A DNA stretch of 64,000 nt from Schmidtea polychroa (lineage: Eukaryota): the NCBI GenBank assembly GCA_044892525.1, contig CM097885.1, forward strand, positions 144,646,001 to 144,710,000, given 5' to 3'. Both the position numbers and the translations under genes were made by a program. Shown here in pieces: positions 29,552 to 43,100 of this stretch. Numbering within the stretch: the stretch's first letter is position 1; each line of letters begins with the position of its first letter. The notes under the pieces are model-generated. The model did not search any database. It saw only the letters and a program-made list of their open reading frames with translations, and was not told the origin of the DNA.

Positions 29552-32434
29552 ATGATGAATGTGGTAAAAACCGACGAGTATAAAGAAAAATTTAGAGGCG
29601 AACCGTTTAACGGGAATGCGAACAAGTTGGCAACGTTCATAACAAATTTTGAAGTCTATATCGATGTGTGCGGATGGACAGCGGAAGCAATTAGCAAACG
29701 AATGCCTCTGTTTTTGTGCGATAGCGCACTCGAAGTATACCTAGAAGCAAAAGAGAGGAATACGAAATTAGACAATTGGGAAAGCATCAAAACATTTTTG
29801 AGGAAAACCTTCGGAGCCAGCAAACCGATAAATCAAGCGTTAGGTGAACTGGCAAGTAGAAAACAAAGAGCAAACGAGTCAATAACGTTATACGCAAGCG
29901 AATTGCGAAGATTGGCAAAAAAGGCCATGAACGGAAACCTGCCAGAGGAAAATTTAATTGGTTATTTCATAGAAGGACTACGCCGAGAGGAGGTAAGAGC
30001 CTCGGTGGGATGTCAAATGTGTAAAACACTAGAATAGGCCATAGATTGGGCCACAAGATGCGAACTACACCTCCCAGCACAAATGAATGTCATGCAAGAG
30101 GAGGGAAGAATCGCATCAGCAACGGTGAAAACGGAAAGTGGAGATAATAACAATCACGAACCAAAGATGAATCAGTTTATACCAGGTGCGCATCAAATTT
30201 TCAAACCACCACAAGGACGATCAAACGGGAATAATAGTGAACGCAACAACTCGAACAATGGGAATAATTTTAATAATCGACGAAATACGAACGATAACAA
30301 ACAATGCCGAACATGCGGTAAACCAGGACATTGGGATAGAGATTGTTACCGAAACGCAAATTGCAATAGGTGTGGACGACGAGGACACACGGAAAATATA
30401 TGTCAATTGAGAGGATGTTTTAACTGTGGTCAACCAGGTCACATCTCAAGAGACTGTCGAGAAAGGGGCCAACAACAACGACCACCACAGCGAAATAATA
30501 ATTATGCACCAAATCCGCAACGACAAAGTAACCCCAGTGAGGGAAAACAAATGAATGTGATGCAAGAAATTTCACAAATGAAGCAGATGATGCAACAAAT
30601 GATGAGACCGAGACAAGAACAAGTACCACAACAAACTCAGAATATACGTATGATGAGGAGCACCGAAAATCTTAACAATTACGGAGTACAACAACATGCA
30701 CAAGAATGGCAAAGACTACAAGCTGAAGAAGAGAGAATAAAAAGAGAGCGAATTCAGCAGCGACAAGAACAACCATTACGAATAAATATGATGAGGATAG
30801 TAAAGGAGATAAAAGAGCAATATTGTTACAATTACGGTAAAAATCCAAGAGTTGTACCAATGATCGAACCAGAGAAACCGAAAGAAACAATTATAGAAAC
30901 CAAAAAGGAAAGCCCAACAACACCGTTAAAGGGAAATCAGAGAATTCAGAAAATATTTTGGAAAAAGATAAAAGATAAAATCGAAAGAGAAAATGAGAAA
31001 ACAAAAACAGAAGCAGAAGCGATAAATGAAGGAAACGAGAAACAAACTAGTCATTTAACCCATGAAATGGTACAGGAATTAGAATCGGAAGAATTAACGA
31101 TATTTGAGAATAAAAAGCTCAAGAAAGTACCAAGAATGAGAAATTTACGAATTAACATGATGAGGACGACAAAGAAGGTATTGTCAACAGACGACGATGA
31201 GGATAATGTGAGTAGCCTTGGTGGGGAAATATTACAGCTAAATGAAAATATCGAACAACTAAAGGAAAAAATCGGAGAAGAAGGAGATGAGAGTGAAAGC
31301 GACGTAACAAGCGAAAGTGAAGACGAAAATATCGAAACGAAATTGAGAAAAGAAAAAGAAGAAGCGATAAAACAAGTAAAAGAAATACTTCCAGTGGTGG
31401 TAAGAAACCAGGATTTCATTGACATCATACCATACAGACGCTTCATACAAAAGATAATGAAACTAGAAAGAAACGAAAAAGATTTAATACCAAGCGAGGA
31501 GAAAGCGATAATAAAGAAGTATATGGAAAAAATGAAACAAGCAGAGACAACACGCTATGTAATAAAAATCGGAACGAGCAAAGGACTCGAGAGAATATGG
31601 ATAAAAAACACCGTTACAGACGAGCTTTTCGACTGGATCAGAGAACATTTGGGCAGTTCAAGAAAGAAAGAATACCTGTATCAATATCAAGGAGAACAAA
31701 TCAAACCAGACATGCACCTAATAGATGCATTAATCTGGCCAGGAGAAACTCAAATATTGAAGTTGCATAAAGAGAAGCAACCAGCCAATGTTCACGAATG
31801 GGCTAAAGACGCCAAGGCTGAATACGATTTTAATATCAAGCTGAAGTTGGAACAACTAAAACAATGCACTTTAAGACGAAATCTAGATAAATTAATCAAA
31901 CAAATCCAAGAACAAGTTGAAGATAACTGGGACTTGCTCATAGCAAGACGAACTCCAGATATGCATGAACTAATGAGCCGACTGCGAGATACAGAATTGC
32001 TCCGAATGAGCGATTGGAGAACCATAAATTTGATCCACAAATATGGAAGATTAAAAGAAACGCAACGGCAGAGATTGGAAATAACCATATGGCTACCAAA
32101 CGAAGAGAAACGACGAATAAAAATGAGTAACCAGAGTACGGTGGACGATTTAGTATCAAAAATAAACCAAGAAATAACGGAAAAAGTTCGAAGCGAGAGC
32201 AGCGATGGTATGATAGATGATGTAGTCATGATGTACGATAAAATAATATTACGGGCTGAAGACGACACCTCGTTAAGCGAAATGGGAATGTGGGATAATC
32301 ATCAAATAATTAGAATATTGCCCATGGACGAATTCCGAACAAGAGATGTAACCTACCAGAAAGAGATACGGGACAGGATGAAAACGCTATACCAAAAATC
32401 AGTAGAGATAATTGAAATTCATCAACAGTGGTAA
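29552..32434 (+). CDS. gag: Gag region of the polyprotein: capsid-like domain, 3 CCHC zinc knuckles (30305-30457), Gln-rich/acidic linkers, two ubiquitin-like domains; one in-frame TAG at 30035
   Basis: PFNGNANKLATFITNFE...YASELRRLA...FIEGL is typical of retrotransposon Gag. Knuckles CRTCGKPGHWDRDC, CNRCGRRGHTENIC and CFNCGQPGHISRDC. ORFs 29552 and 30083 share a frame, separated by one stop. The frame is open upstream to ~29231, so the true start is uncertain. Confidence 0.88.
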
Positions 32435-40190: not shown

Positions 40191-43100
40191 AACGTATAGA
40201 ATAAATATGTTACAAAAAATACACGAAACAACAGGCAATCGATTGGGGCTACAACCATCAGAAGCCGAGAAAATCATAAAAGAGGTAAAAGCTAAAATAC
40301 CCGGATGGGCAAAAGACAGATTAGACTTCGAAATATTGGGAGGTCTACCAACAATGATAGAAAACTATGCAAATCGAGAAAGAACACACCCATTGCTCAG
40401 GGTAGTTAAAAGCCAATGGCCTATATTATTCACAATCACAGACCACTACGGAGATACACCATTACACAAACTTCTAAAGGTGGGTAATAATGAACAAATA
40501 CTAGAAACAATTGAAGCATTTCGCGACTGTAACATTTCGACAGATCAAGAAAACAACCAGGGTTACACTCCACTAATGATAGCAGCCAATCGGGATAAAG
40601 CTAAAGATATTATTATCGCATTACTTGAAACTGGGTCAAAGATAACCACACAAGATCACAACCAGAAAAACGCACTACATCATGCAATCGAAGGAAAGAG
40701 CACTGAAGCATTCATAATCTTAGTAGATCTATTGTCATACGAGGATAACAGAGAAGTAGGAAACATGTATGACGGGTTATTAACCGCAATCAAAGAGAAA
40801 TTAATAACAATTACGGGAATACTAATTGCATGGAGGAACCCGATCAAGAACGATTATATGGTAGATATAAACGAAACATTTACCAAAGGAGAAAACACCT
40901 TGATGAGAGAAGCAATGAGAGGACATCATCTATTTGAAATCCCAAACCAACTACTACAACGAGGTATAAAGCTCTCAAACCATAAAGACGAGCAGCTGAT
41001 CAGAAAGCGAATTACAAACTTCGAAAAAGCTATATCTCAATTTACCGATAAAGTACAAGTAAAATTTTGGGAAACCGTGAGTGTATTATATATGATGGAA
41101 ACTATGAACAACATTCGAGAAAACTACCTAAGTATTATTCAAGTGCTTACGGCGGAGGAACGCATTAACAGTTCAAACAAGAAAAAGATAAAAATAAAGA
41201 AGGTAAAAGCAAGAGAGTCTGAGGAACAAGTCGATCAAATAATAACTGATATAACAACAACAGGTAAAACCAGGATAATAAACTCGGACCAAGAGATAAT
41301 AATACGCAAAGCCAAAGAGGTGTTCTTTGAAGAAATGCGAGATTTATCTGATGAAGCAATACTAACAAAAATAATAAAAACAGTACACACCTACGCAAGA
41401 GATCAGACCACAAATCTAGACATAGGGAAAATAAAAACATTCATACCACTAGCATTTACCATACCAACAAAAGATTCAAGAACACCATTACAACAAGCAA
41501 TATTAGCAGCAAAAGAAAACAGAGCAATAACCATCATAAGAATTCTTAGAGACTTCGGAGAAGAATCTAATGCAAAAAATGAACAAGGAGAAACAGCAAT
41601 GATGTATGCAGCAATAACAAATATACACCCGAAAACCTTACATATACTACATCAATCAGGTTCGAGACTTGACGAAATATCAAACGAAGGAAATTCTACC
41701 ATGGATTGGGCGACAATACAACCAAACTTGGAAATGATTAGATTCATTTGTAAAAATGCTACAAGAACTGAGGTAGAAAATATCTGTAAAAACACGTCAC
41801 AGTTCCAATGGAACACGATACGGAAGAGCTTAGAAGCCATGAAGTTATTGCTAACATGGAAAATACCGCAAAGCAACAAGTATGCTATAAATATAAATGA
41901 GTTCTACGAAAACGGAGAAAATGCAATGGTTAAAAATACGCTGACAAAGGGAGGAACTCCGAAAATCATACTGATCGTACTAAACCGGGAAGACCTCAAA
42001 TTCACGCAGAATCTAAACGAACAAAAGCGAATCGGAAAACATCGTCGGATACAATTAAGGGAATTAGTAAAAGAATGGAATAGAAAGAGACATGCGGCAA
42101 CAGGCAGAAAAGAATTTGAATTCGAAGCGAAATTAGCAAGAAATAGAGTGCTAACAGCATATCGCAGATTATTGAATGACATAAATGTCGAGGACGACAT
42201 TTTAAACGACAGCGGGGGAGATAAAGACGATAAAGACGACGATAATAATGAAAAAGGTCGAAACGGGAAGGGAGAAAAAGAGAAACCAGAGGAAAACAAT
42301 CAAGAAAATAACGGCGCAAGTACGAGAAAGGAGGAAGATAACCCGGGAAGCCGAACAAAGGAAGAGGAAAAGACGAATAATGGAAAACAGAGGGTATGCC
42401 TACTTTTTACCAACAAGGAAATGGAGACAAATATGATGATAATGATACTCGTATTAACAATGGTGGAAATGATAACAGCCCATGGAGGAATGAGAACGTT
42501 AAAAGAAGCTAAAGAAACGGAAAATAAAGACAACAAAGAGGAGGAACTAAAACAAGAAAAGAAGAAGCAAGTACAAGAGCAACAATGGGACTTAAAAGAG
42601 GAATGGGATCTAAAAGAAAGGTGTATATTAGGAAGATGCATGTCTAGAGCGTATCAGAAACTAGTGTTAAAAAATGAAGATGCAGAACCAATAACGGAAG
42701 TGGGGATTCAGGAAGCGTACCAACATCGAAACGGGAAGAAAATAACAAAAGTTAAATGGAAAGAGGTACACTTGAGTAAAGGAGGTGAGATAGTTATAAC
42801 ACAACTCCAGCCAAGGAAAGAGCACAAAGTGTGTATCTCAAGGTTAGGACCAGGAGAAGACTGTCTACAATATGTAACACAGCAACAACCACCAAAGGAA
42901 TATACAGTTTGCATCCTGAGAAACACTCCAGAAAGAGAATGTCGACGATACCCCGGGAAAAGAGGGAAGAAAAGAAAAATCAATGACGAAAAAGATGAGC
43001 AAGGAAAACGCAAGAAAACCGGTGAGAAATATCAGGACAATTATGTATCAGAGGAAGAGATGGAAAAAATACAAAAGATGGCAAAGGAGGGTATGAACGA

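Follow-up and report, generated by a model that had tools for sequence, protein, structure and literature searches.

To our knowledge, the largest long terminal repeat (LTR) retrotransposons described are the Burro elements. These giant gypsy elements of planarians (Burro / GYPSM1) exceed 30 kb and, in the cited sections of their description, encode one open reading frame (ORF) of 4,873-5,140 residues that carries Gag, CCHC knuckles, Ubi/SUMO-like and BCL2-like domains, an env in frame between gag and pol, a dUTPase-like domain between protease and reverse transcriptase (RT), and ankyrin repeats, with MATH/TRAF inside or beside the ORF (PMC6431247). Here we consider how such a polyprotein may be processed, using a Burro-like Ty3/gypsy element of 30.3 kb at positions 22233-52554 of a 64,000-nucleotide stretch of Schmidtea polychroa DNA (assembly GCA_044892525.1, contig CM097885.1, 144,646,001 to 144,710,000, forward strand; hereafter the window, whose numbering we use throughout). 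An earlier note had picked out twelve copies of a short motif along this polyprotein as cleavage sites. We consider it likely, from sequence comparisons, that the motif is the P2-P1-P1'-P2' core recognized by the element's own aspartic protease, with the cut after the second residue, as in Ty1.

Likened to Burro by its published description, the element shares a length above 30 kb, LTRs of ~4.0 kb, an env in frame between gag and pol, and ubiquitin/SUMO-like, ankyrin and MATH/TRAF domains. It differs in placing MATH/TRAF in a separate downstream ORF, in having three ubiquitin-like modules, and in being a broken copy. Just before env, where Burro has its BCL2-like domain, the window has a helical domain common to the relatives, with no Bcl-2 match. 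The BIR domain, a feature of Burro1, was not found among the 11 ORFs scanned, which have RING at 26658 and 44002, and no named Burro sequence was among the matches from sequence searches with the element. The GAG-ENV-POL errantiviruses of Platyhelminthes, Nematoda and Bryozoa likewise have a gB-type env upstream of pol; in the cited parts of their description the passages on "cleavage" concern furin sites in Env, and its main text is without "polyprotein" or "ankyrin" (PMC13524379). A metagenome scan with the window's Env found no relative. The element family, its single ORF and the type of site are already known, and the addition made here is the predicted processing map. No such map for Burro was found in literature searches or in the cited parts of PMC6431247, PMC13524379, PMC11410931, PMC13465017 and PMC6525542, a scope that does not establish absence from print.

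This copy reads in a single frame from 29231 to 39016, interrupted by stops at 30035, 32432 and 35879, changes frame near 39010 and continues to 43434, making four breaks in total. Pfam gives the order Gag, CCHC knuckles, Monjiviricetes-type fusion glycoprotein, protease, RT, RNase H, integrase and ankyrin repeats. In relatives, env and pol share one open frame, the longest reaching 3,700-4,060 residues. A read overlay indicates a high-copy family; among the 40 of 4,021 difference rows listed, every covering contig in all four runs differs from this copy at 32432, the one stop that these rows cover, and near the frame change contigs of three of the four runs differ from it in length. On sequence grounds the single-polyprotein model is right, as the open-frame relatives and the Burro description, in its cited sections, indicate (PMC6431247). 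The earlier note had counted the motifs as independent support for that model; the model stands, but the motifs do not serve as its support, since the relatives and the Burro description carry it.

A short motif at polyprotein junctions

All twelve motif strings lie at the coordinates claimed for them, RTIAVMS exactly at 36701. Each has I/V/M at P2, I/L/M at P2' and N, A, H or C at P1, giving the core [I/V/M]-[N/A/C/H]-x-hydrophobic; the consensus first proposed, with hydrophobic residues at both P1' and P2', is broken by ASINSLM (34343), whose P1' is Ser. Motif positions, enrichment, recurrence and the domain map were all computed, the map's boundaries coming from Pfam, BLAST and jackhmmer envelopes and being drawn with the motif positions already known (Table 1). 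Eleven of the twelve sites fall in linkers of this map, the exception being 33194. Compared with shuffled sequence, the 1,428 linker residues contain the earlier note's motif 12 times (mean 1.5, maximum 7 in 3,000 shuffles) and the 3,302 domain residues contain it nine times (mean 13.3); the linker matches are ten of the listed sites plus 29555 and 36647. The linker figure is nonetheless inflated, because the map was drawn with the sites in view and the motif was fitted to the same sites, and held-out tests were run for this reason. A motif-blind control, which takes [IMV]-x-hydrophobic-hydrophobic tetrads and compares P1 in N/C/H/A by flank polarity, showed a weaker effect, with 10 of 28 with polar flanks in the window versus 10 of 87 (odds ratio 4.3, p=0.006).

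The held-out set comprised 17 non-redundant relatives, five near-twins among 22 having been dropped. Eighteen of 58 anchored junction windows carry the motif, compared with 6.0 after shuffling (maximum 16 in 2,000 shuffles), whereas core tiles of RT, RNase H and integrase show no enrichment (22 of 170 versus 22.3). By class, the RNase H/integrase junction has the motif in 8 of 17 relatives (p=0.001) and the post-knuckle junction in 4 of 15 (p=0.01). The site type is general among gypsy elements: non-redundant env-less ones also carry it in their RNase H/integrase windows (7 of 23, with 1.6 expected). Ahead of the accessory ubiquitin-like module the motif is present in six of 13 relatives' windows versus 0.77, or three of ten versus 0.56 in the non-redundant set. 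De novo expectation maximization on 61 windows, from relatives only, yielded [VIL]-[NAGS]-[AM..]-[ILV], with a log-likelihood of 104 versus 73-86 in eight shuffles; N/A/G/S lead at P1, and P2 and P2' are hydrophobic as in the window. By the four core columns of this matrix, 11 of the earlier note's sites are among the 25 best of 1,422 linker positions and fill ranks 1-4.

The protease offers a positional measure. Across 30 protease-like domains from 26 relatives, 14 motif matches have P1' 23-28 residues ahead of the catalytic Asp, none at 17-22 and three at 29-34; 16 of the 30 domains have a match at 22-34. In the window the distance is 26, as expected for the N-terminus of a mature protease. 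The catalytic residue of HIV-1 protease is Asp25, and a weak alignment (E 0.14) sets P1' of RTIAVMS one residue ahead of HIV residue 1.

Several results weigh against taking the motif as a protease signature. The motif-blind control on flank polarity falls short of significance in the 26 relatives (odds ratio 1.3-1.6, p=0.06-0.11). A six-column relatives matrix run over 4,705 positions ranks the earlier note's sites 33rd-850th, so that sequence alone is not specific across the whole polyprotein. The P1 class in the Asp-distance test was widened after the relatives had been seen, and the duplicated protease domains in it are non-independent. Among single non-redundant classes, the pre-protease (3 of 12, p=0.07) and integrase-end (3 of 14, p=0.23) windows are weak; some pre-module matches are the post-knuckle site, which the pre-module stretch happens to include, and the pre-module test loses significance in the non-redundant set when the residue classes are widened. 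The RT N-terminal junction is without a motif in the window, and one of 12 relatives has it there versus 1.74. As far as such statistics reach, the motif carries a real signal at anchored junctions and a weak one over the polyprotein as a whole.

The closest known counterpart is the Ty1 protease, whose natural sites VPTIN/NVHTS, IHLIA/AVKAV and TARAH/NVSTS (slash at the cut) place hydrophilic residues at P1 and P1' between mostly Val/Ile at P2 and P2', in the cited parts of PMC6952103. The window's sites resemble them in Ile/Val at P2 and P2', in small or polar residues at P1 (Asn/Ala/His) and in lying within interdomain linkers. Since the consensus first proposed for the window matches this Ty1 pattern, the likely register is a cut after the second core residue. 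Differences remain: Ty1, a copia element, has three sites (PMC6952103) and the window has ~9-12 candidates; Met is common at P2, P1' and P2' in the window, and the core there is often flanked by basic residues. Foamy virus sites are reported to resemble those of yeast retrotransposons, with Pol cut mainly at RT/integrase and inefficiently elsewhere, a parallel to the motif-free RT N-terminus here; unlike the window element, foamy viruses make Pol apart from Gag via splicing and have few sites (PMC3185560, cited parts). Ty3 Gag cleavage is treated in PMC6525542, whose cited parts are without site sequences. That host proteases cut these sites, or that they mark internal translation starts, would suit the frequency of Met in the window's motifs and the coincidence of 29552 with the frame's first ATG. 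It would not suit the relatives, whose motifs are mostly without Met (VAAI, VNFI, ICAL), nor a pattern of the published retrotransposon-protease type beside intact protease motifs, and we find this explanation barely credible.

Likely, doubtful and rejected sites

With recognition by the element's own protease as the preferred reading, the site list likely contains about nine protease sites, two doubtful ones (34343 and 37082) and one that is wrong (33194). The proposal that the sites are substrates of this protease thus probably holds for the nine, fails at 33194, and lacks firm support from relatives at the other two. GEINVLT (33194..33214, +) is rejected as a cut site: it lies within the ubiquitin fold of module 3, where INVLTMAE forms the last beta strand (residues 141-148 of a model with a predicted local distance difference test score, pLDDT, of 86.5), and the alignment agrees. 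In relatives, windows 3' of the ubiquitin-like module show no motif enrichment (2 of 13 versus 1.05), and a site there is rejected, as is one at the RT N-terminus. A conserved site ahead of the Env signal is likewise rejected, with none in 14 relatives. CKMNAII (37082) overlaps the first strand of the domain that follows it.

These cases bear on a structural explanation, in which each motif would be the first or the last beta strand of an adjoining domain, the beginning of a signal helix or a short binding motif, noticed by eye as a hydrophobic patch in a polar linker. This is true of 33194, probably of 34343 and possibly of 37082; the polarity control is weak in relatives, and the pre-protease motif overlaps the N-terminal dimer strand region of retropepsins. 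Yet the same core stands beside unrelated folds (capsid, knuckles, integrase, ankyrin and protease), 32696, 40195 and 30548 stand tens of residues from any domain, and domain cores are not enriched, which together make a structural origin for the set as a whole very unlikely.

The motif had also been said to mark nearly every domain junction, which overstates its reach. In addition to the RT N-terminus, it is missing in the window between modules 1 and 2, between the ankyrin blocks, and from the 201-residue linker between module 3 and the putative Bcl-2-like domain, where three of four relatives lack it too. The Env ectodomain has none versus 1.8 expected and the second ectodomain one, counts too weak to use. 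Beyond the original list, three further candidates were found, at 29552, 30638 and 36641.

Two motifs, QMNVMQE and LRINMMR, each occur twice. Within each pair 19 of 21 bases agree and the differences are synonymous only, while the 60-base flanks match at 16-20 of 60 positions. Conservation of the seven residues without conservation of the DNA around them argues against recent DNA duplication as the origin of the twins, and we reject that origin. The twins also bear on whether only the standard Gag and Pol sites (30080, 30548, 36701, 38831 and 40195) are cut, the accessory-region motifs being unused duplicates or drift and the region staying one large piece. Such restraint would fit statistics in relatives that are strongest at RNase H/integrase and ahead of proteases, the modest non-redundant support for pre-module sites, and the failure of two accessory-region sites (33194 and 34343). 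It sits poorly with LRINMMR occurring twice with synonymous differences alone and unrelated flanks, and with ranks of 4, 3 and 7 for 30776, 31145 and 32696 by a matrix trained without them; on balance we judge it unlikely.

Predicted processing and products

For cleavage by the element's protease at accessory as well as standard sites, we infer the scissile bond, the membrane topology and cleavage itself from the features above. An intact element would be translated as one chain of ~4,700 residues that threads the endoplasmic reticulum at two internal signals (hydrophobic segments). Host signal peptidase would release Env and the second membrane protein at their lumenal N-termini, and the element's protease, its DTG and IIGTD motifs intact, would cut the cytosolic linkers after the second core residue, for example I-N/M-M and I-A/V-M. 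Specificity may arise from a weak four-residue preference sited in exposed linkers. The predicted pieces are a capsid of ~175 residues, a nucleocapsid of 156, spacers of 30, 47 and 123, modules 1+2 (516), module 3 with the putative Bcl-2-like domain (~550), protease (127), dUTPase-like+RT+RNase H (583), integrase (454) and an ankyrin block (731). Since the junctions between accessory domains are motif-free, these domains would separate from Gag and Pol in multi-domain pieces, and not each as its own protein as the earlier note had it.

The map may further represent a selective processing program, in which each accessory module has its own upstream site, RT stays fused to the dUTPase-like segment, and the piece of module 3 and putative Bcl-2-like domain retains the Env signal peptide as a C-terminal anchor. 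We offer this as a tentative reading that is more doubtful than not. If 34343 is uncut, the Env signal would remain on the putative Bcl-2-like piece as a tail anchor, and host Bcl-2 proteins are tail-anchored with the same topology as predicted here. The reading depends on a Bcl-2 assignment made from position, a GGW motif that we take to be BH2-like, and the Burro description; searches gave no confirmation. The domain at 33830-34240 had no Pfam match, no significant PDB sequence match and only Atlas matches <0.8, and a single-sequence fold of 32600-34420 was unusable (pLDDT 40).

Table 1. Features of the Ty3/gypsy element in window coordinates. Ranks are among 1,422 linker positions by the relatives-only matrix; iE, independent E-value; HMM, hidden Markov model.
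Feature	Coordinates	Strand	Basis
5' LTR	22233..26267	+	~4.0 kb, TG...CA; 99.6% identity to 3' LTR
Polyprotein frame, Gag-accessory-Env-Pol-ankyrin-membrane protein, ~4,730 codons	29231..43434	+	ORF map; same layout open in relatives
MMNVVKT before capsid, extra candidate, ambiguous (also first ATG of frame)	29552..29572	+	Motif scan
Capsid (Gag)	29585..30064	+	Pfam Retrotrans_gag E 7e-12; BLAST to relatives
QMNVMQE, capsid/nucleocapsid, likely	30080..30100	+	Similar post-capsid motifs in several relatives (by eye)
Three CCHC zinc knuckles	30290..30460	+	Pfam
QMNVMQE, after nucleocapsid, likely	30548..30568	+	Post-knuckle 4/15 relatives vs 0.88 shuffled; synonymous twin of 30080
QNIRMMR, extra near-match (Arg at P1), possible	30638..30658	+	Rank 13
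LRINMMR, likely	30776..30796	+	Rank 4; synonymous twin
LRINMMR, before module 1, likely	31145..31165	+	Rank 3; pre-module window enriched in relatives
Helical + ubiquitin-like module 1	31322..31780	+	jackhmmer iE 4e-25
Helical + ubiquitin-like module 2	31832..32323	+	jackhmmer iE 2e-12
RHIHAMR, before module 3, likely	32696..32716	+	Rank 7; pre-module window in relatives
Helical + ubiquitin-like module 3	32810..33226	+	Model pLDDT 86.5; Foldseek and HMM matches to ubiquitin, SUMO
Helical domain, putatively Bcl-2-like (position, GGW motif)	33830..34240	+	jackhmmer iE 1e-19 to relatives
ASINSLM, start of Env signal's hydrophobic stretch, doubtful	34343..34363	+	0/14 relatives vs 0.75 shuffled
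Env: internal signal, class III (gB/chuvirus-like) fusion ectodomain, transmembrane segments	34358..36250	+	Pfam Monjiviricetes_fusion E 1e-45, 2e-14
PGMNYMP, Env cytoplasmic tail, extra candidate, possible	36641..36661	+	Motif scan
RTIAVMS, protease N-terminus, best supported	36701..36721	+	Catalytic Asp = residue 26 from P1'; relatives peak 23-28
Aspartic protease; DTG at 36788, IIGTD at 36992, both intact	36731..37075	+	Pfam RVP E 2e-9
CKMNAII, protease/dUTPase-like boundary, plausible	37082..37102	+	Rank 2; 3/9 relatives vs 1.08, p=0.08
Reverse transcriptase + RNase H	37430..38810	+	Pfam
QRICLMV, RNase H/integrase, likely	38831..38851	+	8/17 relatives vs 2.4, p=0.001; 7/23 env-less gypsy vs 1.6
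Integrase	38858..40140	+	Pfam
YRINMLQ, integrase/ankyrin, likely	40195..40215	+	Rank 1; relatives 3/14 vs 1.67 (not significant) non-redundant, 6/19 vs 2.56 all
Two ankyrin-repeat blocks	40250..42087	+	Pfam, BLAST
QRVCLLF, before second signal segment, likely	42388..42408	+	Rank 8
Second signal-like segment, ectodomain, transmembrane helix, tail	42424..43431	+	Hydropathy; full-length relatives share two-segment C-terminal layout
Accessory ORF, RING + MATH (TRAF-like), separate from polyprotein	44002..45441	+	Pfam
3' LTR	48521..52554	+	99.6% identity to 5' LTR

Domains, locus and the meaning of processing

Some features of the domains merit separate mention. A four-helix domain, conserved across relatives, precedes each ubiquitin-like domain (for example 32780-33010, +); by eye we take it to resemble TFIIS N-terminal domains, and a fold search of the module containing the 32780-33010 domain gave, among the matches listed, ubiquitin-fold ones only. 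The Env ectodomain has a loop at 35081-35170 (+), acidic then basic (RMR...KEKR), that could be a host furin-type site. Five relatives (P0001, P0002, P0081, P0139 and P0141) have two to five protease-like domains per polyprotein, most with a motif upstream; P0141 repeats IGML/VGML, and the window has one protease only. The interval between protease and RT holds a conserved segment of ~85 residues without a Pfam match, and its name "dUTPase-like" is borrowed from the cited part of PMC6431247.

The Ty3/gypsy element, flanked by a 4-bp target duplication (GAAT), is surrounded by a Bel/Pao element at 20956-58411 with LTRs of 694 bp that are 98.7% identical and with Peptidase_A17 and DUF1759 at 52927-55871. 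An ORF of the Bel/Pao element just 5' of the insertion point (21191-22207, +) has a C-terminal domain closely similar to ubiquitin (Pfam E 1e-21), so that the locus has a second retroelement that captured ubiquitin independently. Each Ty3/gypsy LTR contains an ORF of 200-250 codons without a Pfam match (24966-25724 and 51253-51864, +). A RING ORF lies upstream of the polyprotein (26658-27257, +). Downstream, the interval 44002-48259 (+) holds the TRAF-like RING+MATH ORF and three others that were judged by eye: two are charged and helical-looking, and a small one has segments resembling a signal and a transmembrane segment. Further out lie host exons of a KDM5 histone demethylase (3814-7973, -; ARID, PHD, JmjC and C5HC2). 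For the flanking KDM5 exon, protein matches at ranks 2-24 are parasitic flatworm with one exception, the top-ranked match, with 67% coverage, comes from a scorpion, and no planarian protein is among the matches listed. Flanking DNA has a GC content of ~28%, and a perfect inverted repeat of 259 bp with a 5-nt spacer at 60060-60582 may represent either a foldback element or an artefact of assembly.

The type of site described here is ordinary for LTR retrotransposons, and the ranked site list opens the question of processing to simple peptide and proteomics tests. Burro1 is reported to protect planarian stem cells from apoptosis (cited in PMC13465017). Were the tail-anchor reading true, inserting Env into the membrane would, as a side effect, provide the retrotransposon with a membrane-anchored regulator that opposes cell death. 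More broadly, how a membrane-spanning polyprotein of almost 5,000 residues is processed determines whether a given host-interacting domain works by itself or remains attached to others, and in what location.

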